Part shown: piece after piece, positions 1-28,738 of the stretch
Numbering within the stretch: the stretch's first letter is position 1
Layout of the letters: the number at the start of each line of letters is the position of its first letter
Source of the DNA: Oscillospiraceae bacterium
Lineage (GTDB): Bacteria > Bacillota > Clostridia > Oscillospirales > Acutalibacteraceae
Direction of reading: 5' to 3'
DNA: 28,822 nucleotides
Assembly (NCBI GenBank): GCA_902766855.1
Contig: CACXFE010000212.1
Coordinates: forward strand, 1-28,822
Program-made: the position numbers and the translations under genes
The notes under the pieces: generated by a model
Seen by the model: only the letters and a program-made list of their open reading frames with translations
Told to the model about the DNA's origin: nothing
Database searches by the model: none

Positions 1-1
1 G

Positions 2-1150: not shown

Positions 1151-1152
1151 GG

Positions 1153-2265: not shown

Positions 2266-2271
2266 GTAAAG

Positions 2272-8105: not shown

Positions 8106-8115
8106 GAGCACGGCT

Positions 8116-9147: not shown

Positions 9148-9149
9148 TC

Positions 9150-9200
9150 AAAAAACCGCCTTGCTGTTCTTACAAGAGCAGCAAGGCGGTTTTGTTTTTT
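9150..9200. terminator. Bidirectional intrinsic terminator between the convergent aro and ychF operons
   Basis: 20-bp inverted repeat 9152-9171/9174-9193 (one G-U pair), with an A-run on the left and a T-run on the right. Confidence 0.9.
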
Positions 9201-9210
9201 GCGGATGCCG

Positions 9211-10131: not shown

Positions 10132-10145
10132 AGAATGCCTCCCGT

Positions 10146-11633: not shown

Positions 11634-11643
11634 AATGCACCGC

Positions 11644-12777: not shown

Positions 12778-12781
12778 ACTG

Positions 12782-13162
12782 TCAATCCTTTCCTAACCGG
12801 CGGTGCATCATGCCCGCAAAGGGAACTGCCGCGGAACTGAGAAGAAACCACAAGCCGGAATATAACGGGCAGATCTGCCCGATGATATGAAAAGGCATTT
12901 TGCTGTAATCCCAAATGCCTTTCTTTAAAATGATATTAAAAATCACACCGAATATGAATTCGACCGATGTGATCAGCGCGCACCCAAGCAGGCTTTTTAC
13001 GAATAGCCCCGCCTGGCGGAATCGGTTGCCCAACCAGCCGAAAGCCGTGAAGCAAATGCCGCCCGCAGTCAGCATAGACCAATGGGTACGCCCGCGCCAT
13101 GCCAGTTCCAAAAGCCCGTATCCGCACGCCCCGATCGAAAACATTACCATTTTTCTTTTCAT
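12782..13162 (-). CDS. Small membrane protein, putative ABC-transporter permease-like (CmpB/TMEM229-like)
   Basis: Four hydrophobic segments with ELAWRGRTHWSM, EFIFG and WDYS..PFHIIGQICP motifs. Start ATG 13162 preferred. Confidence 0.65.
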   Translation of the reverse strand: MKRKMVMFSIGACGYGLLELAWRGRTHWSMLTAGGICFTAFGWLGNRFRQAGLFVKSLLGCALITSVEFIFGVIFNIILKKGIWDYSKMPFHIIGQICPLYSGLWFLLSSAAVPFAGMMHRRLGKD

Positions 13163-13210
13163 GCCCTTCACCGCTATTAGTATGCGGGAAAGACCGGGCA
13201 ATTATTCTCT

Positions 13211-13906
13211 TCAGCGTTTGCGGTTGGAAATAGCGATCAGGCGGATCAGTTGCGCCAGTGAAACCAGCAACGCGGCAACATAGGTCATCGCGGCGGCGGA
13301 AAGCACTTTTTTAGCGCCACGGATATCCGCTTCGTCGGATAAAATGCGATCCGCCCGGATGGCGGAAATCGCCCGGCGGGAGGCGTCAAACTCAATCGGC
13401 AGGGTTAAAAGTTGAAAAAGCAGCGCCAGGCAAAAGAAGATAACGCCTAACTTCATCAGAAAAGCAAATTGAAAAATCAACCCGATCACCAAAAGCGGCA
13501 TAGAGAGTTGTGAACCGAGATTGCAAATCGGTAAAATCACCGCGCGCAGATGAATCGGGCGGTACTCTCTGGCATACTGTACGGCGTGTCCCGCTTCATG
13601 CGCCGCCACGCCGACCGCCGAAATGGTGCGGGAATCGTACACCGTGTCCGATAAGCGGATCACATTGGTTTTCGGATCGTAATGATCGGTCAGATTGCCG
13701 GAAACCCGCTCAATGCGCACATCGGTCACGCCGTTGGCGATCAACACCCGGTGCGCCGCTTCTGCCCCGCTTAAAGAGGCGGAGCGCCCGCTATACTTGG
13801 CAAAAGTGGATTTTACTTTAAATTGCGACCATACCGCGATCAAAATCGCCGGAACGACCAGATATAGATACAGTGAGTCAAATCCATAATAAAAGAATTG
13901 GTTCAC
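13211..13906 (-). CDS. Neutral zinc metallopeptidase (YugP/Zn_peptidase_2-like), membrane-associated
   Basis: LTDHYDP, AAHEAGHA (HExxH), EFDASRRA and AAAMTYVA. GTG start after a GGGGTGA RBS. Confidence 0.88.
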   Translation of the reverse strand: MNQFFYYGFDSLYLYLVVPAILIAVWSQFKVKSTFAKYSGRSASLSGAEAAHRVLIANGVTDVRIERVSGNLTDHYDPKTNVIRLSDTVYDSRTISAVGVAAHEAGHAVQYAREYRPIHLRAVILPICNLGSQLSMPLLVIGLIFQFAFLMKLGVIFFCLALLFQLLTLPIEFDASRRAISAIRADRILSDEADIRGAKKVLSAAAMTYVAALLVSLAQLIRLIAISNRKR

Positions 13907-13937
13907 GCGATCACCCCATTACGCTTATGGTATAGAA

Positions 13938-15041
13938 TTAAACATTGAAACGGAAAAGAACAATGTCGCCGTCCTTCATCACATAGTCTTTTCCTTCGCT
14001 TCTCACAAGCCCTTTTTCTTTGGCTGTGACCATACTGCCGCCGCAGACATCCATAAATTCGTCAAACCCGATGACTTCCGCGCGAATGAAGCCCCGTTCG
14101 AAATCCGAGTGTATTTTGCCGGCCGCCTGGGGGGCTTTGGTGCCTTCCCGGATCGTCCATGCACGCACTTCGGGTTTTCCCGCGGTCAGATAGGAGATCA
14201 GACCTAATAAGTGATAGCATTTTTGGATCATGCGGTCAAGCCCCGAGCGCTCCAATCCCAAATCTTCCAAAAACAGGGCCTTTTCTTCATCGCTTAAAGA
14301 AGAAATTTCTTCTTCCAGTGCCGCGCAAATCGGTAAGATTTCGGCTTTTTCTTTTTCAGCTAAAGCCTTTACGGCAAGGTAATTTCGGTTGGAATCTATG
14401 CCGTTTCTGAAATCATCTTCGCTCATATTGCAGGCATAGATCACCGGCTTTGCGGAAAGCAGGGCGGTAGTATCCAAAATTTCCTGCTCACTTTCGTCCA
14501 GCAGTTCGATGGAGCGGGCGGGCAGACCGCTTTCCAAATGCGCGATCAGTCGTTTTAAAAAGTCCGCTTCCCCTTGTAATTTTTTATCGCCTTTCAATGC
14601 CTTCAAAGTGCGGTCCAAGCGGCGCTGCGCCATTTCTATATCGGAAAAAATCAATTCCAGATTGATGGTTTCTATATCCCGCAGGGGATCGACCGAGCCT
14701 TCCACATGAATAATGTCATCGCTTTCAAAACAACGCACAACATGCACAATGGCGTCCACTTCCCGAATATGAGAAAGGAACTTATTGCCAAGCCCTTCTC
14801 CTTTGGAAGCGCCCTTCACAAGCCCGGCAATATCGACAAATTCGATCACGGCGGGAGTGAATTTGTCCGGCTTGTAAATCGCGGCCAGTTTTTCCAGCCG
14901 TTCATCCGGCACACTGACCATCCCGACATTCGGTTCAATGGTGCAGAAGGGGTAATTGGCGGATTGCGCGCCGGCGTTGGTGATTGCGTTGAACAAGGTC
15001 GATTTCCCGACATTGGGAAGACCTACCATTCCTAGTTTCAT
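13938..15041 (-). CDS. ychF: Obg-family ATPase YchF
   Basis: GLPNVGKS, NYPFCTIEPN, DIAGLV, IHSDFERGFIRAEV and EGKDYVMKDGD. Confidence 0.97.
   Translation of the reverse strand: MKLGMVGLPNVGKSTLFNAITNAGAQSANYPFCTIEPNVGMVSVPDERLEKLAAIYKPDKFTPAVIEFVDIAGLVKGASKGEGLGNKFLSHIREVDAIVHVVRCFESDDIIHVEGSVDPLRDIETINLELIFSDIEMAQRRLDRTLKALKGDKKLQGEADFLKRLIAHLESGLPARSIELLDESEQEILDTTALLSAKPVIYACNMSEDDFRNGIDSNRNYLAVKALAEKEKAEILPICAALEEEISSLSDEEKALFLEDLGLERSGLDRMIQKCYHLLGLISYLTAGKPEVRAWTIREGTKAPQAAGKIHSDFERGFIRAEVIGFDEFMDVCGGSMVTAKEKGLVRSEGKDYVMKDGDIVLFRFNV
15004..15019. other. Candidate att core (crossover site) inside the ychF 5' end
   Basis: TTCCC-GACATT-GGGAA is a 5-bp inverted repeat around a 6-bp spacer. 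It lies where ychF codons switch from A/T-ending (CTA GGA ATG GTA GGT CTT) to mostly G/C-ending. Confidence 0.5.
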
Positions 15042-15105
15042 AATTCTTCATATCTCCTTTAAAATCCTTTATTTATAGGGGTTATCGGTGTCGTGAAATT
15101 GTGAA

Positions 15106-15128: not shown

Positions 15129-16310
15129 TTAAGCAGTCGAAAGGCTTTCAAACTGTCGAACTGCATTTAACAAGGAATCTTCCGTTACATGAACGTAACG
15201 ATCCATAGTTGTTTTTATGCTACCGTGACCAAGTAATTTTTGTAATACTTTTGGTTGCATTCCGCTTTCAATAGCTCTTGTAGCGTATGTATGTCTCAAA
15301 GCATGCATACAAAAGCGTTTGATTTTTGCTTCATCGCATAACTTGTAAAGATGGGTGTCATAAGAACTGTTCTTTGCAGGTTCTCCCGTTCTCCAATTGA
15401 TGAAAACAAGGTCTCGCATAACTAATGTTGATTTTTGGCCTGTATGTCTATCCATATAATCCAACGTTTGAGACAAAGTTTCTGATTCCTTTCGGAATTT
15501 TCTGTTTTGATATAATTCCAAAAGAATATCATATGCTTTGTTTGTTAATGGAATAGTGCGGTAGCTATGTTGAGTTTTTGGTGGACCTGCACGCCAATAG
15601 CCTTGTTTGTGTCTGTATTCCAAGGTTTTATTTACTGTGAGAGTTCGTTTTTCAAAATCAATTGTATCCCAGGTTAATCCAATTAGTTCTCCAGTTCGAA
15701 GTCCAGTTTCAAGAAGCAAAGCGTATTGTTTATAATTATGTGAACGTTTTGCAGCTTCTAAAAATTTTTTCTGTTCTTCTATGGTAAGGAACTTTATATC
15801 GTTTGGAGCACGAACTGGTTTGGTGTAACGTACTCCGTCCATAGGATGCTTTATTATTAAATCATTCATCAAAGCAGACTTAAACATTGTGCCCATACAG
15901 ATAAAACATTGTCGTATTGTAGAACCAGCATATCCGTCATTCATCTTATTTAAAACCATTTTGCAATGCAAGGGTTTAACATCGGATAATAACATACGTC
16001 CTACAACAGGTTTTACATTAATGGTATATCTTTCCCTGTAGTTTCGTAGAGTGTTAGGAGCAAGGTCTCCAACTATATTATCAATCCAATAGTTAAACCA
16101 ATCATCAACAGTCATATCAGAAGGTGCAAATACATTGTCGTGCTTATCTACATATTTTGCTTCTTCTAACCAATTGCGGGCTTCTGGTAAAGTGGGGAAC
16201 AGTTTTTCTTGTCGTTTACCATACTTATTTACAAATCTTGCGGAATAGAATCCATCCTTTCTTTGGCAGATACCTTTGCCACATTCTTTGCCTTTTAGGT
16301 TTTTACCCAT
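15129..16310 (-). CDS. int: Tyrosine recombinase/integrase with Tn916-type N-terminal arm-binding domain
   Basis: N-term [15 protein letters not shown]. Catalytic GLRTGE (R), PPKT (K), HALRH (HxxR), LGH, TTMDRY (Y). RBS GGAAAGGAG. Confidence 0.95.
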
Positions 16311-16359
16311 TATATTGAACTCCTTTCCACACTAAGAAAAGAGCCAATGCAACTATTAT

Positions 16360-16388
16360 AGTATAACTCATTGACTCAATATTTTCAA
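16360..16388 (-). promoter_or_regulatory. Sigma-A-like promoter of int
   Basis: TTGAAA-N17-TATACT on the - strand. A 9-bp imperfect inverted repeat (16341-16349/16369-16377) brackets the -10. Confidence 0.65.
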
Positions 16389-16417
16389 TAAAAAATCTAA
16401 AATTATATAGTATAATA

Positions 16418-16624
16418 TTAAATAATCAAATTGTTGCTTATAAAATCCTCAAACTCCTTACGTTTGACTAACTTTTTTGTTCCTACAAACAGAACAAACG
16501 GACAATTTGGGGCTCGTAATAAAGCATCAATTTTGTTTATACCGATATTACTGTACTCGGCGGCTTCTTTAATTGTTAATGTCAGCTTTTCGTTTATGGG
16601 TATTTGTTTTGAATTTTCAGGCAT
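16418..16624 (-). CDS. xis: Excisionase (Tn916 Xis-like winged HTH)
   Basis: 68 aa, LTIKEAAEYSNIGINKI...KKLVKRKEFE, immediately upstream of int. RBS AAGGAGA. Confidence 0.88.
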   Translation of the reverse strand: MPENSKQIPINEKLTLTIKEAAEYSNIGINKIDALLRAPNCPFVLFVGTKKLVKRKEFEDFISNNLII

Positions 16625-16724
16625 TTTTTATCTCCTTTATAATTTTTTGAATAGGAAGAAACAATATAAAGACAAATTTATGATAAGAAAAAGGTTTTTA
16701 TAGAATAATATATCCAAATACAGA

Positions 16725-16856
16725 CCATTTCCTGCATTTTGCGTATTTTCAGGTAGTGCTGTGCACGGTTTGATTTGCAGGCATGCTCAATCTTCATCGC
16801 ATACTATCTGCAAAACCTGTATAACTTCTGTAAAAGGATTCAATTTTCAAGGTTCA
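16725..16856 (-). ncRNA. Putative structured leader RNA upstream of xis, with a boxA-like 5' element
   Basis: TGAACCTTGAAAATTGAAT (16856-16838), then stem GGUUUUGCAG/CUGCAAAUCAAACC with an inner UAUGC/GCAUG helix, then a GUGC-ACA-GCAC hairpin. Confidence 0.45.
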
Positions 16857-16937
16857 AAATAACGGTATTTGCGTCCGTTGTAAAATTAAATACGGATAAA
16901 ATGATATTTCTTCTTCACAATAATGAAAATTTTTCTT

Positions 16938-16953
16938 AAACCATATATTGTTT
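16938..16953. promoter_or_regulatory. Putative NrdR box 1
   Basis: AAACCATATATTGTTT against consensus acaCwAtATaTwGtgt: all capital positions match; mismatches at positions 2, 5 and 15. Confidence 0.5.
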
Positions 16954-16970
16954 TAAAATCAAAATAACGC

Positions 16971-16999
16971 TTGACAACCACAACATATTGTGGTAATAT
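16971..16999 (+). promoter_or_regulatory. Near-consensus sigma-A promoter of the rightward operon
   Basis: TTGACA (16971-16976), N17, TAATAT (16994-16999), with an extended -10 TGn. Confidence 0.85.
16978..16993. promoter_or_regulatory. Putative NrdR box 2 (operator in the promoter spacer)
   Basis: CCACAACATATTGTGG lies within the 7-bp palindrome ACCACAA-N4-TTGTGGT and matches acaCwAtATaTwGtgt at 13/16 positions, including all capitals. Confidence 0.65.
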
Positions 17000-17004
17000 A
17001 GCTT

Positions 17005-17352
17005 TGTAATTGATTTTTGTGCATGCCCTTGAGGGGCAATCGTAATACTTTTTGTATTACATCGCACACACACGTTGAGTTTGTAATTGAGTGCTGACAG
17101 AATAATTCTGCCCTTTTAAAGGTAAGAATAAATGTCAGCACTTTTTATATAGATATTAACGCCTTCGGGCAGAAAGGAGAAAGAAGACCAAGATTATTGT
17201 TATCTTTAAGGTAACGGACACGGGGAGGTAAAGCAAGTTAATGCTTTGTTTCTAAAACAATCATAAAAACAGAAGAAATACTGCTGATAATGTTTCAGCT
17301 TTTTGAGGAATCGTATGTGTTTTAAGAGAAATACAACGATTCCTCTTTTTTT
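17005..17352 (+). ncRNA. Putative ~345-nt structured leader/sRNA (5' end inferred from the promoter)
   Basis: No credible CDS. Hairpins at 17024-17038 and 17042-17060, a 10-bp perfect stem 17090-17099/17133-17142, a GCC-UUCG-GGC tetraloop at 17161-17170, and a terminal terminator. Confidence 0.6.
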
Positions 17353-17358
17353 GTTTTT
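17305..17358 (+). terminator. Intrinsic terminator upstream of the first operon gene
   Basis: GAGGAATCGT/ACGATTCCTC perfect 10-bp stem plus a 7-bp inner stem, followed by TTTTTTTGTTTTT. Confidence 0.85.
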
Positions 17359-17390
17359 ATGGCCATTTTTTAAATGAAAGGAAGAAATTT

Positions 17391-18182
17391 ATGAGAAGAT
17401 TTCAAAAACTGAAAAGCTCGGCAGTTACACTATTGATTGCAGTTTTAGCAATCACTTGTTTTACGAGAGGTGTTTTACAATTGTCTCTTTATATTGCGGC
17501 ATTTGTGGCATGGGGTATATATGCCTTCATATCATTTGTTGTGCCGATAATAAAGAGACACAACTATCGCCGTGAGGTAAAACGGATTGTGAACGAAAAG
17601 CCATGTAAAGATGCAAATGATGATAATTATGAAAGATTAAGTTACTTGTTGCTTTGTCATGTCAATCACAGAATTACCGGTTATATTCAAAGTACATATC
17701 CCGATGCAACATGGGCTTGGCGAACGGATAAACCTGCATATATTATGGCAAACGGTGGTACTGGCAGAATAGAGCTTTTCGGTGTTAAGGAATATAATTT
17801 TGCTGACATATCTTTTGATAATGATGCAAATATTGATTGTTCCTTGCTTAAAATTGTAAGTCTTAAACAGGCGGCGCAAACCGAATGTAAGGATGCATCT
17901 GCCGATGTTACAAAATCGGAAATTGACCCGCAAGTATGGTTTGAAAAAAGCGGTCGTGTAATCCTTAAAAACCTTATTGCAGAATTAGGCTCAAGAGGAC
18001 ACAATACACTTACTATACGAGATGATGGAAGCTGTGTTGTGAAACAGGGTGAAAAGGAAATTGAGGTATCTCATCTTGAGGCGTTTCCTGAAAGAGTGTA
18101 TCATCCCAAGCTTATTAAGGTTTTTGCAGGAGCAGGTATTGCCGCAAAAACTGTGGATGCGGGATTGGCTGTTAATTGGTAG
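17391..18182 (+). CDS. Hypothetical protein with two N-terminal transmembrane segments, 263 aa
   Basis: RBS GAAAGGA, hydrophobic residues ~10-45, stop overlapping the next RBS. Confidence 0.75.
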   Translation: MRRFQKLKSSAVTLLIAVLAITCFTRGVLQLSLYIAAFVAWGIYAFISFVVPIIKRHNYRREVKRIVNEKPCKDANDDNYERLSYLLLCHVNHRITGYIQSTYPDATWAWRTDKPAYIMANGGTGRIELFGVKEYNFADISFDNDANIDCSLLKIVSLKQAAQTECKDASADVTKSEIDPQVWFEKSGRVILKNLIAELGSRGHNTLTIRDDGSCVVKQGEKEIEVSHLEAFPERVYHPKLIKVFAGAGIAAKTVDAGLAVNW

Positions 18183-18192
18183 GTGATGCCTT

Positions 18193-19263
18193 ATGAAAAA
18201 AGGAATTTCCATCAATGAATTAGCGGCTGAAATTTCCCGACAAAAGGATGCTATGGCAGATTATGTGATTGCTCCGTCAAGGCTTTTAATGGACACTTTG
18301 ACAGATACACCGAAGTTAAGGGTGCTCGATGAAGAAGGCAACGACCGTATAAATCCTTTGGACATTGGTGTATATGCGCATAGACAGATAGCGGGTTATC
18401 TTAACATACCGCAAGCATATTACGATCTGATGTTGGATAAAAACCCTGACCTTTTAGGTATAAATGTCAATGACTGGTTGTATCGCACCGAAGATAGGCG
18501 ACTGCTTCGAACACTTGACGGTGAAGCTCGTGCTTTTTTAAGTGACAGATATAAGCGAATTGATAATTACGATATTGCTCAGGCAACCCTACCAGCTATC
18601 TTGGAAATACCGAATGTGGAATTTGTGAGCTGTAATTTAACGCCCGGCAAAATGTATATTAAGGCAATAAATCCTCGGCTGATGGATGATGTTGTACCCG
18701 GTGACACAGTTCAGGCGGGTATTATTATCAGTAACAGTGAGGTTGGCTTAGGTGCAGTAAATATACAACCGCTTATATACCGACTAGTTTGTGAAAACGG
18801 TATGGTTATAAATGATGCTGTTACTCGCAAAACCCATCTCGGTCCTACGATTTCTGATGAAAATATATTCTTATATTCAAAAGAAACGGTAGAAGCCGAC
18901 GATAAAGCCTTTATCCTAAAAATACAAGATACAGTAAGGGCGGCGGTTGATGAAGCAAAATTCCGTACAGTTGTAGGTCAAATGCGCGAAGCGAAAGAAG
19001 CGCAGATGAACACCGCAAATGTACCTGAATTTGTAAGGCTTGCAAGCCGCAGTTTTGGTATTACAGAAAATGAAGAAAAAGGTGTATTACAACATCTTAT
19101 TGAGGGCAAAGATTTATCTTTATACGGTCTTTCTAATGCAGTTACACGGTTTAGTCAGGATGTTGAAAGCTATGACCGTGCCACAGATTTAGAGGGTATC
19201 GGTTATAAGATACTTACTATGCCTAAAAAACAATGGAACAGAATAAATTCAATGGCAGCATAA
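18193..19263 (+). CDS. DUF932-like phage/plasmid protein
   Basis: RAFLSDRY..IDN and AGIIISNSEVGLGAVNIQPLIYRLVCENGM resemble DUF932 signatures. RBS AGGTGA. Confidence 0.7.
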   Translation: MKKGISINELAAEISRQKDAMADYVIAPSRLLMDTLTDTPKLRVLDEEGNDRINPLDIGVYAHRQIAGYLNIPQAYYDLMLDKNPDLLGINVNDWLYRTEDRRLLRTLDGEARAFLSDRYKRIDNYDIAQATLPAILEIPNVEFVSCNLTPGKMYIKAINPRLMDDVVPGDTVQAGIIISNSEVGLGAVNIQPLIYRLVCENGMVINDAVTRKTHLGPTISDENIFLYSKETVEADDKAFILKIQDTVRAAVDEAKFRTVVGQMREAKEAQMNTANVPEFVRLASRSFGITENEEKGVLQHLIEGKDLSLYGLSNAVTRFSQDVESYDRATDLEGIGYKILTMPKKQWNRINSMAA

Positions 19264-19295
19264 TGCTGACCTATTAAAATTTGGAGGAAATAAAA

Positions 19296-20099
19296 ATGAC
19301 AAACGAAAATACTTTAGCAGTAATGGATAACTTTACTATTCAACCTTTAACAAATGCATCTCCTAATACCGTAATAGATGACCTCGATGATTTTGAGGGA
19401 ATTATGATGACCTTCCCCCGAATTAAAATACCGGGCGGTGGTTCGACGGTTTTTGAGGTTCCAAGCGATGATCCTCAAAAGCCAAATAATGTTCCTGCTA
19501 TTGAAGGTATTATCTTGTATAATCATAATACCAATGCTTATTGGGAGGAAGGTTCGGAATATGATATGAATACATCACCTGTTTGTACCTCTGTTGATGG
19601 TAAAACGGGTTATGGAGATCCCGGCGGTGCTTGTGCGGAATGTCCGTTCAATCAGTACGGAACTGATACTAACGGCGGAAAAGGTAAGGCTTGTAAGAAT
19701 ATGCGTAGCCTATATATCTTACAAAACAATGCACCGTTGCCTATAAATCTGTTACTGCCGCCTACAAGCTTAAAGGCATTCAATGATTTCACACGAAATG
19801 CCTTTATAATGAGGAATCGTAAGCCTTGGGGTTCTCTTGTTCGTATTGAACTTCGTAAAGAGAGTAACGGTTCAAATAACTATGCTGTTGCAACCTTTAA
19901 ACTTTTGGGTGATTTTACCGGAGAAAAGTTAGCCGAGGTTATTGAGTATGCAAAAGTTGCCCGTGCAGGTATTAATGAAATGTTAAAGCAACGCGCTATA
20001 AATGTTGAAGAATTAAAAGAGCCTACTGAAACATTTACTGAAATCGTTGATGATGGAAGTGAACCTAATGGCGACCCATTTAGCGCTGTAGAAGTTTAA
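19296..20099 (+). CDS. Cys4 putative Zn-binding protein, candidate ssDNA-binding protein, 267 aa
   Basis: C-x15-C-x2-C-x16-C cluster and an acidic tail ending DDGSEPNGDPFSAVEV. ATG 19296 follows GGAGG. Confidence 0.5.
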   Translation: MTNENTLAVMDNFTIQPLTNASPNTVIDDLDDFEGIMMTFPRIKIPGGGSTVFEVPSDDPQKPNNVPAIEGIILYNHNTNAYWEEGSEYDMNTSPVCTSVDGKTGYGDPGGACAECPFNQYGTDTNGGKGKACKNMRSLYILQNNAPLPINLLLPPTSLKAFNDFTRNAFIMRNRKPWGSLVRIELRKESNGSNNYAVATFKLLGDFTGEKLAEVIEYAKVARAGINEMLKQRAINVEELKEPTETFTEIVDDGSEPNGDPFSAVEV

Positions 20100-20129
20100 A
20101 AATGACCGTGCAGTGTTGCACAAAATTAT

Positions 20130-20170
20130 AAAAGAGATGCTGTAGCAATACGGCATCTCTTTTGCTATTT
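20130..20170 (+). terminator. Internal terminator-like hairpin before the sigma factor gene
   Basis: 15-bp stem 20130-20144/20149-20163 with a GCAA tetraloop, ending TTTT then GCTATTT. Confidence 0.7.
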
Positions 20171-20188
20171 AAGGAGGAAAAATATGCG

Positions 20189-20719
20189 ATGAAACCGTTA
20201 ACGGGAGAGCAGAAACACTTGGCTGAGCTTAATCATGACCTTGTGTATAAATTTTTAAATAAAAATAATTTGTCTGAAGCGGAATATTATGATGTTGTTG
20301 TTTTCGGCTATCTTTGCGCCGCGCAAGAATATTGTGAAAATGCGAAGCTTCAAAAGTTTTCATTTGCAACGGTTGCTTGGAAGATGATGCGTAGAGAATT
20401 ATCAAATCATATTAAATATCTTGATAGAAAAAAACGTGATTTTCCAACGATTAGTTTATCCGAGATACTTAGTGATTCTGATTCGTTGCATTACGAGGAT
20501 GTAATAACACTGGAAAATCAGTTAATGGAAGAATTAAGACTGAATTTGTTATTACATACCCTTGCCGCAAAAATAACCAAAAAGCAAATGCGTATCATAC
20601 GTATGCGTCTTGATGGTTTCAGGATGCACGATATAGCAAGTGCGGAGAAAATGACATTTAAGGATATCAACCGTATGCTTGATGATACCTACCATAAAAT
20701 AATGGAAATCTTAATTTAG
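20189..20719 (+). CDS. Sigma-70 family RNA polymerase sigma factor-like protein, 176 aa
   Basis: Region 2-like DVVVFGYLCAAQEY...FSFATVAWKMMRRELSN and region 4 HTH-like TKKQMRIIRMRLDGFRMHDIAS. RBS AAGGAGG. Confidence 0.75.
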   Translation: MKPLTGEQKHLAELNHDLVYKFLNKNNLSEAEYYDVVVFGYLCAAQEYCENAKLQKFSFATVAWKMMRRELSNHIKYLDRKKRDFPTISLSEILSDSDSLHYEDVITLENQLMEELRLNLLLHTLAAKITKKQMRIIRMRLDGFRMHDIASAEKMTFKDINRMLDDTYHKIMEILI

Positions 20720-20741
20720 TTGTTTTACGGAGGAATGTTTT

Positions 20742-20954
20742 ATGAAATACGAAATTGTTTTATCAATAGAAATTGATATTGATAAAAACGAGTATCCTGA
20801 TGTGACCGATAAGGATGTTGTAGAAGGTTTGATTATTCAAGATTCGGATATTGTTGATGGATTTGAATTGACTACAGCAGTCAGGGGTTATGACAATACG
20901 AAAGATTATTTTCTTAAAAATGCAAAAATTATAAATAAAAATACAATCTTATAA
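20742..20954 (+). CDS. Small acidic hypothetical protein, 70 aa
   Basis: RBS GGAGG; 15 of 70 residues are D/E. Confidence 0.7.
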   Translation: MKYEIVLSIEIDIDKNEYPDVTDKDVVEGLIIQDSDIVDGFELTTAVRGYDNTKDYFLKNAKIINKNTIL

Positions 20955-20988
20955 TATGCGTTTTTAAGGGAAGAAAGGAATGCTTTAT

Positions 20989-21213
20989 ATGAAAAAAACA
21001 GTAGAAATAAGTGGACATATCGTGTTTCCGTTAAAGGAAGGTGTTTCCGCATACATAGCTTGCTCCAAAGGTATAGTACAAACCTCTAAGGTTGTAAGTG
21101 TTAAAAATGATACAAAAGAATTTGCACACTTTGAAACTATGAATTCGGAGTATAAGGTAACACTTGAGAAAAGTCCTGTGGAATTGGCTCAGGCATTGCC
21201 TAAATGTGCATAA
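20989..21213 (+). CDS. Small hypothetical protein, 74 aa
   Basis: RBS AAAGGA is well spaced to ATG 20989 (zero spacing to ATG 20980). Confidence 0.7.
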   Translation: MKKTVEISGHIVFPLKEGVSAYIACSKGIVQTSKVVSVKNDTKEFAHFETMNSEYKVTLEKSPVELAQALPKCA

Positions 21214-21227
21214 AATTATAATTTAGT

Positions 21228-21263
21228 AAAGGGCACAGTGAGAACAATCTTGCTGTGCTTTTT
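21228..21263 (+). terminator. Internal terminator-like hairpin
   Basis: 16-bp stem (several G-U pairs) with an ACAA loop, ending in TTTTT directly before the next RBS. Confidence 0.6.
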
Positions 21264-21278
21264 AGGTAGGTGATTAAA

Positions 21279-21419
21279 ATGAAAGATTTTATAAAAAATA
21301 TAGTTCTTAAATTCCGTTTATGGTTTAAGCGGGATAAAAGATGTCCGCATTGTTGTGTTACCTGTAGATTTTTCAATGATTGTATAGAAGAAATGAGGAA
21401 CGCAAATGAATTTAGCTGA
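21279..21419 (+). CDS. Cys-rich small protein, 46 aa (absent from the ORF track)
   Basis: RBS AGGTGA 5 nt upstream. MKDFIKNIVLKFRLWFKRDKRCPHCCVTCRFFNDCIEEMRNANEFS*. Overlaps the next start by 14 nt. Confidence 0.65.
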   Translation: MKDFIKNIVLKFRLWFKRDKRCPHCCVTCRFFNDCIEEMRNANEFS

Positions 21420-22317
21420 TAAATTAGCCAATGTGGATATGACTGAAGATAAGCGTATATCTGCAGAAGACCGCAAATATTGTGAAGCTCATCAAAAGGC
21501 GTATGAACTGGCTATTGATAATCTAAAAAATCTTGTTTTCTTTTGGGAATGTACCGAAGCCGAACAAGATGCAATTCTCGGTGATTACGACGCCTATACA
21601 CGGAAGTACAGTAGTTATATCTCAATAGAAGATTTTTCTATACGCAAGGTTGAAGATAATATTATGCATACTCATGAGAAATTTGTCAGATATTTAGTCA
21701 ATTATTTTGATAGGACTTATCATATTGAACTCGATGTCGATAAAATCATAAAATTTCTGATTCCTCAAAAACCCGAATACGATTATTCTGACCGTATAAA
21801 TTATGAAAAAAGGGTTGAAGAATGGGAAAAAGAAATGGAAGAAGTATCTTTGCAATTTGAGGATGTATTAGATCAAATTCTTATACAACTTGATGGAAGA
21901 ACATTTATTGAGCGAGCTATTGATGAAATTATTGCGAATTGCCGTCAGCATGCTTGGTTAAACGGTGAGCCATATTTTGAAGTTAAAGGTGACACTATTC
22001 GTTTTCAAGATTATTTCTGCAGTCATGAGTATTGGATTAGCAGAGATAGATGGACATTTACAAGCAGAATGAAAAGTATCGTACCCGCAATTTATCATTA
22101 TGAAACGAACTGTATTGGTAATTATCCGCATTTATTCAATAGACTGTTTAATGACTTTAGTTATCCCGAACTCGATTTTGATAATGATAATAAGCTTATG
22201 TCTATTAAGTGTTTCAAAAAGGGAAGAGTAGATGTCAAATTCAAAAGCAAAACATATGCTACAGAATTTGCGGATAAATATCTCGGTTGGGTTGCGAACG
22301 GAGGTATAACAGAATGA
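21406..22317 (+). CDS. Hypothetical protein, 303 aa, translationally coupled to the MTase-helicase
   Basis: RBS GAGG; its TGA overlaps the downstream ATG (ATGA 22314-22317). Confidence 0.8.
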   Translation: MNLADKLANVDMTEDKRISAEDRKYCEAHQKAYELAIDNLKNLVFFWECTEAEQDAILGDYDAYTRKYSSYISIEDFSIRKVEDNIMHTHEKFVRYLVNYFDRTYHIELDVDKIIKFLIPQKPEYDYSDRINYEKRVEEWEKEMEEVSLQFEDVLDQILIQLDGRTFIERAIDEIIANCRQHAWLNGEPYFEVKGDTIRFQDYFCSHEYWISRDRWTFTSRMKSIVPAIYHYETNCIGNYPHLFNRLFNDFSYPELDFDNDNKLMSIKCFKKGRVDVKFKSKTYATEFADKYLGWVANGGITE

Positions 22318-25300
22318 AATATAAAATATATCCCCGTCCACCAAAACAGGAAGAACGTGCAGAATTCAACCGCAAACTTTTAAAGCTCATAGACAACAAA
22401 GAAACTGAAAAATATAAGATTTCAAGAGATGATGTCTATAACGCCTATACGGGTGATGGAGGTTTGCATGGACTTAAGCGTGAGAACTATGACAATTATC
22501 ATTCCTACAGTAAAGAAAAAAAGGAAATTGAAAACGGTCAGGTATTTACACCGCCTAAGCTTGCAAAATTGATAGTTGACTGTGTAAGTCCGGCGAAGGA
22601 TGAAACCGTCGCAGACCTTACTTGCGGCGCAGGTGCATTCTTTAATTTTTTGCCAAATGAGAAAAACATATACGGTTGTGAAATTGATATTAAGGCTTAT
22701 AAAGTTGTAAAATTCTTATATCCCGATGCAAACATAGAGAATAAAGATATACGCTCATATAAGCCGATGCTTCGTTTTGATTATGTTATTGGCAATCCGC
22801 CTTTTAATCTTAAATGGTGGGTTGATAATGATGAAGAAATGAAGTCGCAACTGTATTTTTGCAAAAAAGCAGCAACGCTTTTAAAACCTAAAGGAATAAT
22901 GGCGATAATTGTACCTGCATCCTTTTTAGCAGATGATTTTGCCAATGGTTCAGATATTGCTTTAATGGAAGAAAATTTTAATTTTTTAGGGCAAATATCT
23001 TTACCTACTGATTCTTTTACGGCGATGGGTGTAGAAGCTTTTGATACCAAATTACAGTTTTGGCAGAAAAAATCCGAATCCGATACCCAGGCAATGCCTT
23101 ATAAAAAAGATATGGCATTTACCGTTCTTAAAAGTAGTAATTATGATGAAATTGCTGTTTGGGTTGGAGAAAATCTTTTATCCAAAGCCAAGGCAGATTT
23201 AAAGCAAAATAAGTACGGAATTTTAAGAGAAATTGCAAAGGAAGGTACGTTATCTTCAGATTTTGAATACAAGGTTAAAAGTATGCTTTATCAGATAAAG
23301 TGCCATCCAAAACTTTCGGAGCATTACAACAAATGCAGTGAATATCTTTACCGTTTTGCACATCAAACTCAGCCTCCCGATATGGACTATAAGGAATGGT
23401 GTAAGCACAAAATAACAGAGAATAAGGTTATAGCATACCTTAAAAATGTTATTTCAAAGCAAAATGCACCTATCCCACAAGACAAAATTGCACTCGTTAA
23501 GCAGAAATACAATTTTGTTTATAAGGGTTATAGTTCAAAATCAAAAGCGGGCTTAACTGAAGAACAGAAAAAGCCGGTGCCGATTTACGATATTGTTTCA
23601 GGTGCTTGTTTTGATGAATTCCCCAGATATGAAAAATTTATCCGTAAAAAGCAAAATGAATATGCCAGAGAAAATGCTCAATTTGAAGATATGACCGAGG
23701 ATGCTGAAATTAAGAATTGGCTTGATAATTTTACTTTATGGGATTCTGAAAATGAAGAGGATATTTATCTTAATCCTATCCAAAAGCACGACCTTAATTT
23801 AATGCTGCAAAAGCGTTACGGACTTCTTCAATGGGAGCAAGGTTCAGGTAAAACTCTTGCGGGTATTGCTGTAGGTAAATACCGTATGGAAAAACAGAAT
23901 ATTCATCATACATGGGTAATTTCTTCTGCTATTTCTATCAGAAATAACTGGGACGTTGTTTTGGAAAATTATGGACTATCTTATGTTTTTGTAGAGAAGC
24001 TTACTGATTTACAGCGTATTAAAAATGGTGATTTTGTAATTATCACGCTTAATATGCTTAACAAATACCGTAAGCAAATAAAACGGTGGGTTCGTATTCA
24101 TAACCAGAAAATACAGCTTGTTTTTGATGAAAGCGATGAGATGTCTAATCCTAATACTGCAACTGCAAAGAGCGTACTTGATTGCTTTAGAAGATGCAAA
24201 TCAAAACTACTTACAACGGGTACGAGTACAAGAAATAATATAGTTGAATTTGCACCCCAATTGGAGCTTATGTATAACAATTCGGCTAATATGATTTCTT
24301 GGTGCGAAAATACATACTCATACGATTATGACCTTGGTGAAGCTTATCTTTGTAATGACGATAATGTTTATTACGGAAAGCCTATTCCTGCATACTCAAA
24401 AGGATATAACCTGTTTAAAGCATCTCACTTGCCCGGCAAAGCTACAGTATTCGGTGTAGAAAAAATGACACAGGATATTTACAATGCTGCCGTGCTTGAT
24501 GAAATACTTGGTAAAACAGTTATAACCCGTACTTTTGAGGAAATTGTCGGCAAGGAGATTCGCAGAATACATCAAATACCTGTAGCAATGTCTGATGCGG
24601 AAAGAGAAGTTTATGAGATTGCTATGAAAGAATTTTATAAGCTTCGTGACCGTTATTATGCAAGTACGGGCAATGGACGCAAGGATGGAATGCTTATCCT
24701 TATGCAGCAGATAAATATGCTTCTTAAGATAAGCGCTGCTCCTAATACGCTTAGTGAATATACAGGTGGTCTTCCTACTAAGATTTCTAAAATCATAGAT
24801 ATGGTAGGGGAGAGTCCTGATGAAACGGTGGCTATAGGTGTTCGCCATCTTGACGTTCTTGCTGTATACAAGGAAGCGTTAGAAAGCGCTTACCCTGACA
24901 GACAGATATTTGTTGTGAGCGGAAAAATGTCTTTTGCAAATCGTAAAAAGCTTCGTAAAACACTCAAAGAAAGCAAAAACGGTATATTGCTTTGCACTCA
25001 GCAGAGTCTGCCGTCAAGTGTAAACTTTGAGTATGTGAATAAGATTTTTCTGCCCGAACTTCATTACAACAATGCAAGAATGAGCCAGTTTTATATGCGT
25101 TTCATTCGTTATACCTCAACCGATTACAAGGATATATACTTTGTAACCGCAGAGGATAGCATTGAGGCAAATCTGCTTATGATGGTTATGTGCAAGGAAA
25201 AGATAAATTTATTTATGAAAGGCAAAAAGATCAACCTCGATGAAATATACGAGAAATTCGGCGTTGACTATGACCTTGTAAATCAAATTATGGTTAAGGA

Positions 25301-25355
25301 TGTAGATGAGAACGGAAAATCGTATGTTCGATGGGGAAGTCAAAAGGTGGCTTAA
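22314..25355 (+). CDS. N6-adenine DNA methyltransferase-SNF2-like helicase fusion (DarB-like order), 1013 aa
   Basis: MTase: GQVFTP, DLTCGAG, VIGNPPF, IVPASFL. Helicase: EQGSGKT, FDESDE, TTGT, QFYMRFIR. Start ATG 22314 with a GGAGGT RBS. Confidence 0.88.
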   Translation: MKYKIYPRPPKQEERAEFNRKLLKLIDNKETEKYKISRDDVYNAYTGDGGLHGLKRENYDNYHSYSKEKKEIENGQVFTPPKLAKLIVDCVSPAKDETVADLTCGAGAFFNFLPNEKNIYGCEIDIKAYKVVKFLYPDANIENKDIRSYKPMLRFDYVIGNPPFNLKWWVDNDEEMKSQLYFCKKAATLLKPKGIMAIIVPASFLADDFANGSDIALMEENFNFLGQISLPTDSFTAMGVEAFDTKLQFWQKKSESDTQAMPYKKDMAFTVLKSSNYDEIAVWVGENLLSKAKADLKQNKYGILREIAKEGTLSSDFEYKVKSMLYQIKCHPKLSEHYNKCSEYLYRFAHQTQPPDMDYKEWCKHKITENKVIAYLKNVISKQNAPIPQDKIALVKQKYNFVYKGYSSKSKAGLTEEQKKPVPIYDIVSGACFDEFPRYEKFIRKKQNEYARENAQFEDMTEDAEIKNWLDNFTLWDSENEEDIYLNPIQKHDLNLMLQKRYGLLQWEQGSGKTLAGIAVGKYRMEKQNIHHTWVISSAISIRNNWDVVLENYGLSYVFVEKLTDLQRIKNGDFVIITLNMLNKYRKQIKRWVRIHNQKIQLVFDESDEMSNPNTATAKSVLDCFRRCKSKLLTTGTSTRNNIVEFAPQLELMYNNSANMISWCENTYSYDYDLGEAYLCNDDNVYYGKPIPAYSKGYNLFKASHLPGKATVFGVEKMTQDIYNAAVLDEILGKTVITRTFEEIVGKEIRRIHQIPVAMSDAEREVYEIAMKEFYKLRDRYYASTGNGRKDGMLILMQQINMLLKISAAPNTLSEYTGGLPTKISKIIDMVGESPDETVAIGVRHLDVLAVYKEALESAYPDRQIFVVSGKMSFANRKKLRKTLKESKNGILLCTQQSLPSSVNFEYVNKIFLPELHYNNARMSQFYMRFIRYTSTDYKDIYFVTAEDSIEANLLMMVMCKEKINLFMKGKKINLDEIYEKFGVDYDLVNQIMVKDVDENGKSYVRWGSQKVA

Positions 25356-25423
25356 ATCTATGCAGTATTAGTTATGTCATATGGGGGTGCAAATCCTCTT
25401 TCACATAGGAAAGGAATAGAAAA

Positions 25424-25630
25424 ATGGTAAGATTTACACAGAGTTTCAGCCATTGGCTGTTTGAAAATCATAAAGATATATATGCACTTGTTCTATTAGG
25501 ACATACCGAGCTTGTTACGGAAGAAATGTGGAATAAATATATAGAGTGGTGCAATACAGATGATGGCAAGCAATATCTAAAGGGCGGCAGTAAATATGAC
25601 CCCGATTTTGATGAAAGGAAAAGATTATGA
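25424..25630 (+). CDS. Small hypothetical protein, 68 aa
   Basis: RBS AGGAAAGGA; ATGA overlap with the next gene. Confidence 0.7.
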   Translation: MVRFTQSFSHWLFENHKDIYALVLLGHTELVTEEMWNKYIEWCNTDDGKQYLKGGSKYDPDFDERKRL

Positions 25631-26406
25631 AAAAAGAATATTATCCCTCTTTGAAATTAGAGTTAGGTAAGGTTTCGTATTACCTGCAAAAAATAATATC
25701 CGAAATACTCAATAGAAATATTGTCTGTGCAGCTAAGGTTGAAAGCAATGATTTTTGGGGTGTTTGTATTGTTAATACCAGGTTATCTTTATCTGATTTG
25801 AAGTTGTTGTTATCCTTTGTGAATGCGGATGACAGGACAGTAGAGGAAACGATGCCTGAAGATGCCAAAAGCACTCATTCTTTAGGTATGCTATTATCCT
25901 CAAAGCTTCTTCAAAAAGCGTTAAATGCTTCTTGGAAAGAGGAATATGTAACCGAAAAAGATCTTTGGCTTATAGATGTAGAATACATAGTTTTAAGCAA
26001 TACCGAAATAGACTCTAATATTTGCTTCGTTTGTAATCGTGCTGTTGATACAAGAGATTTGTTATCCCAGCAGGATATTAAATCGGGTCTTGAGACAGGC
26101 GGTGCAGATTACAACACCTTAGTTAATTTGTGTGAAGAACACCAAAAGAAATACGGAGATCATTTGTTTTGGCGTTATCCTATTTCTGATGGTGAGCACA
26201 CCGGGGTTTATTTTGTTCTTGTAAAGGAAGGAGTTATGGCGATTCCATATAACAGTGTGGATAACGACTGTTTTGAATGGTTCGTTTTATCTGACATTAA
26301 GCTGTGTAGTCATTTGGATATGATTGATTTTATATCCGAATGGGAGGAATATTCCAATAGGCTTGAAAACCAAATGGCATCCTTTAAAGATTTTCTTGGA
26401 GGATAA
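25627..26406 (+). CDS. Hypothetical protein, 259 aa
   Basis: Long ORF in operon orientation, coupled to the upstream gene. Confidence 0.75.
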   Translation: MKKEYYPSLKLELGKVSYYLQKIISEILNRNIVCAAKVESNDFWGVCIVNTRLSLSDLKLLLSFVNADDRTVEETMPEDAKSTHSLGMLLSSKLLQKALNASWKEEYVTEKDLWLIDVEYIVLSNTEIDSNICFVCNRAVDTRDLLSQQDIKSGLETGGADYNTLVNLCEEHQKKYGDHLFWRYPISDGEHTGVYFVLVKEGVMAIPYNSVDNDCFEWFVLSDIKLCSHLDMIDFISEWEEYSNRLENQMASFKDFLGG

Positions 26407-26416
26407 GTAACTAAAA

Positions 26417-26446
26417 TTTCAGCAGGGTTTCAATGCCCTGCTGAAA
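26417..26446 (-). terminator. GC-rich hairpin with a U-tract only on the minus strand
   Basis: TTTCAGCAGGG/CCCTGCTGAAA perfect 11-bp repeat. On the - strand it is followed by TTTTAGTT; on the + strand by GAAAGG. Confidence 0.45.
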
Positions 26447-26484
26447 GAAAGGTTCAGTTATGTGCGTAAAAAGGAATGGTTTAT

Positions 26485-26949
26485 ATGGATAAACTTGATG
26501 CAGAAAAAATGCTTTGCTTTATAGAAAAATATGAGGCAATTAGTCGTAATAACCTTGCTTTAAATATTAGAAATGCAATGAAAAAAATTACAACAACACA
26601 TAAATTGCAGGAATATTGGTTAGCGGAACTTTGCGGCACAAAAAGAGATTCTGTATATGCTTGGCTAGGACCGAGTAGGACGCTTAAAGCACCGTTAAAG
26701 GTAGTGGTTTTACTTTCTTTGAAATTAAATATACCAATTGATAAATTATTAGAAATCACAGACCAAAGTTCGGACGAATTAAGACATGGAGCTGTTCAAA
26801 AAATTTCTAATGCAACAAGGATAATAGAATACCACAATAAATACCCTGAAAAATCTTTTAAAGAAATAGCAGAATATTTGAGAATTTCAGAAAATACGGT
26901 GCGAAGACATTTGAAAATATATTCTGAAAGGAAAAATGATATTTTATGA
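26485..26949 (+). CDS. Transcriptional regulator with two HTH domains (XRE-like plus C-terminal HTH), 154 aa
   Basis: LQEYWLAELCGTKRDSVYAWL...LSLKLNIPIDKLL and SFKEIAEYLRISENTVRRHL. ATG 26485 fits the RBS spacing better than 26476. Confidence 0.7.
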   Translation: MDKLDAEKMLCFIEKYEAISRNNLALNIRNAMKKITTTHKLQEYWLAELCGTKRDSVYAWLGPSRTLKAPLKVVVLLSLKLNIPIDKLLEITDQSSDELRHGAVQKISNATRIIEYHNKYPEKSFKEIAEYLRISENTVRRHLKIYSERKNDIL

Positions 26950-27365
26950 AATCGATTCTTGATGAACTTAAAACCGAATGTCCGTTTTCTGATATTTTGG
27001 AAGATAAAGAGTTGGTTGACGGTCATATTGTTTTTAAAAAGAAATTTATGCATATAAGGGCGGATTTTGACGGCTATCGTTGGCAGAACACCATTTGGCC
27101 GTATAACAACAGAACCTGCCCCGAAGGCGTAGATGCAAAGGAAATCGACGAGGTTTATTCCCGTCTTGTAAGTTCTAATGGTTTTGAAACCCTAAAAGAT
27201 ATGACAGAGTTTTGTTATCAGCATCCCGAAGCTAAGGTCAACGAACATAGCGATCAGGAATATAACTTTTATTTTGTGGGTAAAACATGCAATTTTTGGA
27301 TTCGCTTAATTACCCGCCGAGGTGACTATAACATTTACCTTCACGCTTTTGAAAAGGATGTGTAG
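26946..27365 (+). CDS. Hypothetical protein, 139 aa
   Basis: ATGA overlap with the upstream gene. Confidence 0.75.
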   Translation: MKSILDELKTECPFSDILEDKELVDGHIVFKKKFMHIRADFDGYRWQNTIWPYNNRTCPEGVDAKEIDEVYSRLVSSNGFETLKDMTEFCYQHPEAKVNEHSDQEYNFYFVGKTCNFWIRLITRRGDYNIYLHAFEKDV

Positions 27366-27367
27366 TT

Positions 27368-27580
27368 TTGGAAAATAAAATTCGGCATGCTGAAAAAGGT
27401 GTTTCTTACTGCAAAAGTATAAAAGATGCCATAAATGGTCTCTGTTCAATGATGGATATTGCTGATGATACTTTTGGAGAAACCGATAGAATCACAGATT
27501 ATAAAAGTATTTTTAGTAAAGCTGATGCTTGGGAAAAGCAATATGAAAATTATATTAAAAAGGCAGGAAATAGCAAATGA
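27368..27580 (+). CDS. Small hypothetical protein, 70 aa
   Basis: TTG start 9 nt after AAAGGA; ATGA overlap with the next gene. Confidence 0.6.
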   Translation: MENKIRHAEKGVSYCKSIKDAINGLCSMMDIADDTFGETDRITDYKSIFSKADAWEKQYENYIKKAGNSK

Positions 27581-28446
27581 TTATAAATAAGCAAGGTGCT
27601 AAATATGATGCTGACGGCAAAATTTTTGTTGTTGGTGAGCCGATATATGTAACTGATGATAGTGATTATAAAGGCTTATTCGGTATAGTAACCGAAATCA
27701 GAGATGGTAAGGATAAGGAAACAGATAATGATACAGTAGATATTTACTGTACTTTGGACGAACCTGTTTTGCCGTTTGATAAAGAACAATTAGAGGGTCG
27801 TTTTTCTCAACTTTATGGAAATAAAATTACTTTAGAAAACATTGCCCTTGATTATGTCATTCTTTCTCCCGATATGTTAACGCCTGTAAAATCAGATGAA
27901 GAAAATACAGATAAAATTGAACTGTATATTGTTCAGGAGGAATACTTCGATGATGAATTCGGTGTAAATAATTATTACTTTACCGACTACATATTGGCAA
28001 AGCAAAAATTAAATGAAATAGTCGCAGAAGATTTTCGAAACGGTTGTGTAAAGGATTGGCAGGAATATAAGGAATTTAAGTTTGAGAGTGGTAAGGATTA
28101 CTACGAGGCTTGGATAGACGGACGCCACTGTGAGAAGCATTATACTGCACAGATTTTTCATGAATTCCTTTGTTTATCTAAAGATACTTTTGAAACGATT
28201 GGTGAAGCTTATATCAACGAATGCTTGCGAGCTGTGTTTATAGATCGAACGGCGCGATTGGATGGTCTTGATGCTTTAGATGAAGGTGATTATGAAAAGT
28301 TGATTAACTCTAACGAATTGCCAAATATAATCAAAGGAAAATTAGTAAACGACAATTCGTTTTTTCAGAAATTTTGTGAAGTTTTCTCAAATGTCAGTTT
28401 TGAAATCGTTAAAGAAATAGGTGTAGTTGAAAATGAAAAGAAATAA
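27577..28446 (+). CDS. Acidic hypothetical protein with an N-terminal KOW/SH3-like motif, 289 aa
   Basis: FVVGEPIYVTDDSDYKGLFGIVTEIRD near the N-terminus; coupled to the upstream gene. Confidence 0.7.
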   Translation: MIINKQGAKYDADGKIFVVGEPIYVTDDSDYKGLFGIVTEIRDGKDKETDNDTVDIYCTLDEPVLPFDKEQLEGRFSQLYGNKITLENIALDYVILSPDMLTPVKSDEENTDKIELYIVQEEYFDDEFGVNNYYFTDYILAKQKLNEIVAEDFRNGCVKDWQEYKEFKFESGKDYYEAWIDGRHCEKHYTAQIFHEFLCLSKDTFETIGEAYINECLRAVFIDRTARLDGLDALDEGDYEKLINSNELPNIIKGKLVNDNSFFQKFCEVFSNVSFEIVKEIGVVENEKK

Positions 28447-28738
28447 AACAAAAGGCATTTTAAAAAGCGGTAAAATTTACAGCGCTCAGGCATATCTCGA
28501 ATTGGTGTTGGGTGAGGCATATATACTCGACCATCAAAAACCGGTGCTTTCTCAAATTGAAAGGCTGTTAATATTCAATCGTAAGCCATATGGCAGTTTT
28601 AAACTCGAAGATACGCAAAAAGCTCTTAATCACAAAGGTAATTATGTACTTGTAAATTGCTGTGATTTAACGGAAGATTTAATGCCATACGAAGAATATC
28701 GTTGGTTTAGAGTTCCTGAAGGTTTCAGCGAAATTTAA
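28433..28738 (+). CDS. Hypothetical protein, 101 aa
   Basis: RBS TAGGTG is better spaced to ATG 28433 than to TTG 28427. Overlaps the upstream stop. Confidence 0.65.
   Translation: MKRNKTKGILKSGKIYSAQAYLELVLGEAYILDHQKPVLSQIERLLIFNRKPYGSFKLEDTQKALNHKGNYVLVNCCDLTEDLMPYEEYRWFRVPEGFSEI

Follow-up and report, generated by a model that had tools for sequence, protein, structure and literature searches.

A putative NrdR operator on the promoter of a DNA-handling module carried by mobile elements of gut Clostridia

Which repressor, encoded by the element or by its host, governs the promoter from which a mobile element would transcribe its early DNA-handling genes, when no gene for a regulator can be recognized beside that promoter? 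The question is raised by a 28,822-nt stretch of DNA from an Oscillospiraceae bacterium (hereafter the window), which corresponds to an entire contig of a 1.48-Mb host genome (51% GC, 97% complete). Bases 1-15100 of the window are host DNA with 54% GC, and from about position 15100 on the GC content is 35%. This second part carries an integrase and an excisionase gene at its end and is of foreign composition (35% versus 54% GC), as expected of a mobile element. The tyrosine integrase gene (15129..16310, minus strand; Pfam Phage_integrase, E 1e-29) forms the left end of the element, where it adjoins the host ychF gene, and is accompanied by a Tn916-type excisionase gene (16418..16624, minus strand; Pfam Tn916-Xis, E 7e-32) that is divergent from the promoter studied here. 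A gap of 766 bp separates xis from a co-directional operon on the plus strand (17391..28738). No genes for type IV secretion, a coupling protein or a relaxase were found in the 13.7 kb of the element that lie within the window, where the contig ends. A pattern search of 400 genomes of the same order returned one further copy, indicating that the element is rare among species representatives.

The promoter is located in the gap between xis and the operon. Its -35 hexamer TTGACA (16971..16976, plus strand) and its -10 hexamer TAATAT (16994..16999, plus strand) are separated by 17 nt (TTGACA-N17-TAATAT); in a promoter scan they match at 10 of 12 positions and are accompanied by an extended -10 TG. 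Two 16-bp palindromes are arranged around these hexamers on the plus strand. Box 1, or box A (AAACCATATATTGTTT, 16938..16953), is at a distance of 314 bp from the start codon of xis, and box 2, or box B (CCACAACATATTGTGG, 16978..16993), fills the promoter spacer, its last bases providing the extended -10 TG (16991-16992). The linker between the boxes measures 24 bp (16954..16977, plus strand) and contains the -35, and the boxes are 40 bp apart from center to center. Each of them differs from the published NrdR-box consensus, ACACWATATATWGTGT, at three positions. The original prediction had interpreted these sites as tandem NrdR-box matches within the promoter, and the coordinates, sequences, 13/16 matches, N17 spacing and 40-bp distance on which it was based were all reproduced. 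Its further statement that no repressor gene lies between xis and the operon is in agreement with the three small ORFs of the gap, none of which holds a Pfam-recognizable regulator. Because box 2 spans the -35/-10 spacer, the operator overlaps the binding site of RNA polymerase. A promoter placed inside a long hairpin, in the manner of the single-strand promoters of plasmid leading regions, was also considered and discarded, the inverted-repeat scan around the promoter having returned only the box palindromes.

Loaded with ATP and dATP, NrdR forms a tetramer that binds its boxes, and it is released from nrd promoters as dATP drops (PMC9110341, PMC12051234). A 2026 study identified by mutation C4, A6, A8, T9, T11 and G13 as the critical positions of the box and reported that both boxes are required and that the linker counts by its length alone (PMC13584703). 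All six positions are intact in both boxes of the element. In a 2025 study, four NrdR proteins were measured on linkers of 12-27 bp and bound well when the linker was 14-17 bp long and again, one helical turn further, at a second optimum of 24-27 bp; linkers of this longer class were bound by all four proteins tested, and streptococci mostly use linkers of 25-26 bp (PMC12051234). The original prediction had noted as a caveat that a spacing of 40 bp departs from the commonly cited 31-32 bp. This concern is removed by the observed linker of 24 bp, which is within the documented optimum of 24-27 bp, and by the nrdD promoter of the host itself, in which the linker measures 25 bp.

A suitable repressor is encoded by the host. 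Its nrdR gene (contig C26:1401-1856) specifies a protein of 151 aa with a zinc ribbon and an ATP-cone, and the zinc ribbon keeps Asp15 and Arg17, the residues that contact C4 and G13, which answers the objection that the host might lack nrdR. The genome's only ATP-cone matches are those of host nrdR and nrdD, both on contigs other than the window, and an NrdR borne by the element was thus rejected as a candidate. The sole reductase of the host is of class III and is encoded by nrdD, the promoter of which (contig C105:3143-3199, locus L005) presents two boxes with the six positions intact, the proximal one overlapping the -35. Given the 25-bp linker of this promoter, the host NrdR must already work across a long linker. 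The nrdD linker is of 26 bp in the nearest relative, whose NrdD is 94% identical, and of about 16 bp in other members of the genus, and the presence of a long linker in both the element promoter and the host nrdD promoter may or may not be a coincidence. The host nrdD gene is divided between two contig ends, C105 carrying residues 1-354 and C72 the C-terminal part, and this split would seem to stem from a break in the assembly and not from a broken gene. Hydroxyurea, which had been proposed as a means to challenge the promoter, acts poorly on class III reductases, and it is therefore probably unsuitable for disturbing dNTPs in a host that has no reductase of another class.

In order to assess the strength of the sites, a symmetric position weight matrix (PWM) was derived from 25 nrdD promoter boxes in a set of about 25 related genomes, with the host and the element excluded to avoid circularity. 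Scoring of both sites against nrd boxes had been suggested in the original prediction, and the boxes of these relatives were used for the purpose. Box 2 reaches 21.3 bits and is the second best site in the whole genome, and box 1, with 17.6 bits, is the sixth. Taken together at an allowed linker, the two boxes add up to 38.9 bits and constitute the top pair of the host genome, ahead of a runner-up at 28.1 bits and of the host's own nrdD pair at 21.7 bits. In a simulation of 1000 sequences of 13.7 kb, the length of the element, with the AT-rich composition of the gap between xis and the operon (31% GC), the best pair had a mean of 10.3 bits and a maximum of 23.7 bits. By simple consensus matching, the window holds exactly two matches with at most three mismatches, and 0.22 are expected from shuffled sequences; there are 15 such matches in the complete 1.48-Mb genome. 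No further pair of at least 20 bits was detected in 420 kb of related element DNA.

The genes downstream of this promoter, all of them on the plus strand and assigned by Pfam and PHROGs scans, appear to form a DNA-handling module. The first intact gene (from 17391 onward) encodes a 263-aa protein of no assigned function in either database, and it is followed by a DUF932 gene (18193-19263), a gene for a 272-aa protein of no assigned function, a gene for an ECF-like sigma factor (20162-20719), several small ORFs with a gene for a 303-aa protein, an N6-methylase/SNF2 helicase fusion (22287-25355) and an HTH protein (26476-26949), among others. PHROGs returned no function for the uncharacterized proteins of the operon. 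Gene order (ssb, 263-aa protein, DUF932, 272-aa protein, sigma factor, methylase/helicase) is the same in 55 related loci and in a record of the cultured strain Vescimonas fastidiosa MM35, and the module is reminiscent of the genes that plasmids carry in their leading or establishment regions. As the original prediction had stated, the scans found no nrd gene downstream of the promoter in the window, and the same is true of the 55 syntenic loci, which places the promoter outside the classical NrdR regulon.

The cultured relative is informative about the nature of the element. In V. fastidiosa MM35 the same promoter and module lie on pMM35_02 (NZ_AP023417.1, loci L150/L151, about 27.8-81.3 kb), and the promoter there consists of box 1 TATCTATATATAGAAT, a 15-bp linker, box 2 TCGCAATATATAGTGC and a TACAAT hexamer. 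The region also holds PrgI-family (T4SS-associated) and VirD4-like genes, pilins, sortases, ParM and an integrase, and the location of the module amid transfer genes indicates that it belongs to conjugative elements. Housekeeping-like genes (purA, purB and a thioredoxin system) are present as well in this 142-kb record, which, judging by its gene content, appears to be a secondary replicon into which a conjugative element has integrated. In most relatives the promoter is preceded by co-directional genes for a DUF3268 zinc-finger protein, a sigma-70-type factor and two uncharacterized proteins, and not by xis-int. A divergent xis-integrase pair beside the NrdR-like promoter was seen only in the window and in one related locus (L037), and a tblastn comparison of the two regions (window 15129-16624; L037:623-2231) revealed no detectable homology between their integrases, which suggests that one recombination module was exchanged for another next to a promoter module that remained in place. 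The original prediction had extended the putative control by NrdR to the divergent xis-int genes. This part of it is not supported, since the boxes belong to the conserved ssb-DUF932-sigma-methylase module and xis-int is not found upstream in most relatives, and we consider a link of the boxes to xis-int unlikely.

Between the promoter and the first intact gene lies a region of considerable structure. A conserved structured leader RNA (17006..17180, plus strand), the start of which was placed from the position of the -10, comprises an outer stem (UGUGC...GCACA), variable hairpins and a long terminator-like hairpin, T1, followed by a U-run (17090-17142, plus strand). It is completed by the invariant motif TTTTTATATAGATATT...GGCAGAAAGGAGA (17142-17180, plus strand), which ends in a ribosome-binding site. 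Compensatory changes are seen in 8 of the 24 predicted pairs of the leader (alignments A1 and A2), which is present in more than 100 metagenome contigs. Rfam yielded nothing at the gathering threshold for this leader and, at E values up to 1, one chance eukaryotic hit. In the window the leader is followed by the remnant of an ssb-like gene (17181..17290, plus strand), which according to the alignment has lost its start codon and about 270 nt, and then by a second terminator-like hairpin, T2 (17305..17352, plus strand), with a perfect stem of 10 bp and a T-run some 40 nt before the first intact gene. The ssb deletion is common to the window, L035 and L037; the gene is intact, with a Pfam SSB match, in L036, L038, L039 and Vescimonas, and in most relatives it comes directly after the ribosome-binding site. 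From two metatranscriptome runs only short pieces were recovered, all of them within the DUF932 gene, and the remaining runs had the appearance of DNA.

It may be argued from this leader that NrdR does bind the promoter and yet controls mainly a short, terminated leader RNA with the role of a riboregulator, with a separate antitermination signal switching the operon and dNTP status alone being insufficient. Such an arrangement is compatible with a conserved leader that ends in a long hairpin and U-run about 140 nt after the promoter and with the second terminator before the first intact gene, whereas the invariant ribosome-binding site and the position of ssb directly after the first hairpin argue for read-through, and we regard it as a possible but somewhat unlikely account of the locus. 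With two terminator-like hairpins between the promoter and the first intact gene, release of NrdR alone may in any case not be enough for expression of the operon, and output may depend mainly on something other than NrdR. The leader itself may act as a second regulatory gate or as a small RNA.

If the boxes are operators, they should recur in homologous elements, as the original prediction had pointed out, and both boxes and their layout do recur. A homologue of the 263-aa protein was identified in five genomes (41-70% identity), and in all five of them the spacer of a TTGACA-N17-(-10) promoter is occupied by an NrdR-like box, with another box 14-17 bp upstream of it; one of these boxes is a perfect match to the consensus. 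The invariant leader motif retrieved 102 metagenome contigs, of which 80 were used, and 57 distinct promoter regions were assembled in this manner from the five genomes, about 50 metagenome variants and the window, the Vescimonas record being examined separately. The TTGAC[AG]-N-box-(-10) layout is common to all 57 distinct promoters, which share ancestry, were retrieved via a conserved leader motif and are not independent samples. The linker to the best upstream box among these 57 promoters measures 14 bp in four cases, 15 bp in 31, 16 bp in 17, 17 bp in two, 21 bp in two and 24 bp in the window, and we suspect that a box with a linker of about 15 bp was missed in the two 21-bp cases. Of 32 distinct box 2 sequences, 30 retain all six critical positions, as do 20 of the 23 distinct sequences of box 1. 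When 54 distinct promoters are aligned, their -35 is invariant, and the information content amounts to 1.96 bits per column at the critical positions, 1.06 at the remaining box positions and 0.50 in the linker beside the -35, a profile that parallels the NrdR logo at each position. Since the 263-aa protein shows identities of only 29-70% among related elements and yet the critical bases are kept, this conservation points to selection on the bases that NrdR reads rather than to recent common descent. The nrdR gene is present in each of the five other host genomes of related elements that were checked.

In most homologues box 1 has weak flanks (4-7 bits), and in two lineages (L037/L061 and L105) it lacks C4/G13 or falls below zero bits. 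The closest relatives of the window (L037 and L061) have a degenerate box 1 at a 17-bp linker; in the window the box at this distance has been lost and a strong box is found one helical turn further out, which looks like turnover of box 1 within the geometry that NrdR allows. The 24-bp arrangement is not confined to the window, for a contig from an independent public run (X4) is about 98% identical to window positions 16300-17656, covering int, xis, promoter and leader, and has the same linker. Its box 1 differs from that of the window at positions 5 and 14 only, and the critical positions are spared. Other contigs of the same public runs have the leader joined to different promoter variants, also with NrdR-like boxes.

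The architecture of these promoters is that of nrdD promoters in the order to which the host belongs. There, the two boxes of a typical nrdD promoter enclose a linker of 15-16 bp with the -35 in it, and the second box lies between the -35 and the -10. Two nrdD promoters (L023 and L031) have the form TTGACA-N-box-TAACAT/TAATAT in a register identical to that of the element, and about seven others present a weaker spacer box in a register that agrees within about one base.

These comparisons bear on the proposal that the palindromes serve an element-encoded regulator (HTH, zinc-finger or sigma-associated) or another host factor as operators, their likeness to NrdR boxes being a matter of coincidence or mimicry. 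AT-rich palindromes are indeed a common operator shape, and the element family offers DNA-binding candidates in the HTH protein at 26476-26949 and two sigma-like factors, to which the DUF3268 zinc-finger protein and a weak winged-helix protein encoded upstream in most relatives may be added. However, only the positions critical for NrdR remain constant while flanks and linker drift, the spacing falls into the two classes measured for NrdR, and the layout copies the nrdD promoters of the same order. Moreover, the upstream zinc-finger and sigma genes are absent from the window, where the boxes are strongest, the gap beside the promoter holds no recognizable regulator gene, as seen above, and the DUF3268 protein, when considered as an NrdR in its own right, was found to have no likeness to it. 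We thus judge this proposal to be improbable. A last proposal, that the module once followed an nrd gene and the boxes are left over from its captured promoter, or that they merely belong to a strong AT-rich promoter, NrdR having no present role in either case, is very unlikely. In its favor, the promoter is nrdD-like in every respect, no nrd gene is now present and the end of box 2 doubles as the extended -10 TG, so that the polymerase explains part of the conservation. Against it, the critical positions of a relic would be expected to decay and not to be kept as they are among elements with such divergent proteins, and in the window box 1 has given way to a strong new one at a distance that NrdR accepts. 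Moreover, RNA polymerase is not known to require particular bases at spacer positions 4-13, nor a second palindrome located 15 bp upstream of the -35.

From the observed boxes, with their genome-wide rank and their conservation and spacing in the element family, and from the NrdR proteins of the hosts, we infer that host NrdR likely binds and represses the element promoter. All the computational checks that had been proposed along with the original prediction spoke for an NrdR operator. On this reading, the two 16-bp palindromes would make up a complete NrdR operator on the sigma-70 promoter of the early DNA-handling module. In the presence of ATP plus dATP, NrdR would occupy both boxes as a tetramer, and its presence on box 2, which covers the whole -35/-10 spacer, would exclude RNA polymerase. 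A decrease of dATP relative to ATP would shift NrdR to forms that do not bind DNA, and the promoter would then fire together with host nrdD. Transcription would next have to pass the structured leader with its two terminator-like hairpins, and NrdR would probably be the first of two gates.

The element family thus probably ties its early DNA-handling genes to the dNTP status of the host. That dNTP depletion is the true induction signal for the element is a more tentative proposition, to which we would give rather less than even weight. Equally tentative is the broader scenario, to be taken as a whole, in which a widespread family of conjugative elements of gut Clostridia would rely on host NrdR in place of a dedicated master repressor and would wake as dATP falls, be it through replication demand, nucleotide-depleting defenses or phage attack, independently of the SOS response and in any host that bears NrdR, and in which the operator of the window would have been rebuilt with the long-linker geometry of the host nrdD operator.

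Control of this kind can be compared with several known systems. In LexA-dependent SOS induction, prophages and SXT-type elements respond to a host repressor, and here, too, a stress-sensing repressor of the host would gate the early genes of an element; unlike in the SOS response, the signal would be the balance of dATP and ATP instead of RecA-activated cleavage, and the host repressor would sit directly on the promoter, with no intermediate repressor of the element. In Tn916, translation-coupled attenuation operates upstream of tetM, and transcription continues into xis-int. The element described here shares with Tn916 a Tn916-type Xis and a tyrosine integrase at its end, as well as a leader with terminators ahead of its genes, but its promoter faces away from xis-int and carries a predicted site for a host repressor. 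The closest parallels to the operator itself are those of Bacillota nrdDG genes, such as Listeria monocytogenes nrdDG and the long-spacer sites of Streptococcus pneumoniae, which have the same paired 16-bp boxes with the same six critical positions and, as here, overlap the RNA polymerase site with a linker of 15-16 bp or one turn more (PMC12051234, PMC13584703). In contrast to those operators, the genes downstream in the element are an ssb-DUF932-sigma-methylase module and not a reductase, and NrdR binding is predicted. An NrdR box on a DNA-metabolism gene outside the nrd operons has been documented in Pseudomonas aeruginosa topA by a reporter and box mutation; this is a single chromosomal box with an activating effect, whereas the element, which moves horizontally, has a predicted tandem operator inside the promoter core, where NrdR would repress (PMC4409342).

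NrdR is regarded as a specific repressor of ribonucleotide reductase genes, and the single box of topA is the one well-tested target outside this set that we found. A search for NrdR in connection with conjugative elements, plasmids, prophages, phages and ssb found no report of such wiring in the literature that it covered. What would be new, if our reading of these promoters is correct, is the use by a mobile element of a known operator-repressor pair on genes unrelated to ribonucleotide reduction. Mobile DNA would then plug directly into the dNTP sensor of its host, and conjugative elements of gut anaerobes would gain an induction signal other than DNA damage. The conservation of NrdR boxes across phyla would, in addition, provide a reason for a broad host range. 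The idea is testable, given that the same promoter exists in the cultured V. fastidiosa MM35 and that NrdR proteins are reported in published work to bind sites of other species.

Finally, several high-scoring NrdR-like boxes were noted elsewhere in the host genome, and they suggest an NrdR regulon in the host lineage that extends beyond the nrd genes. A pair with a 16-bp linker lies upstream of purB (C162:2842-2889), its upstream box in a -35/-10 spacer, and a near-perfect box is found just upstream of recJ, at a contig edge (C164:9-24). Single boxes are also located in the promoter spacer of host nrdR (C26:1897-1912) and just 3' of the -10 of a promoter-like site that precedes a GGDEF gene (C180:894-909).
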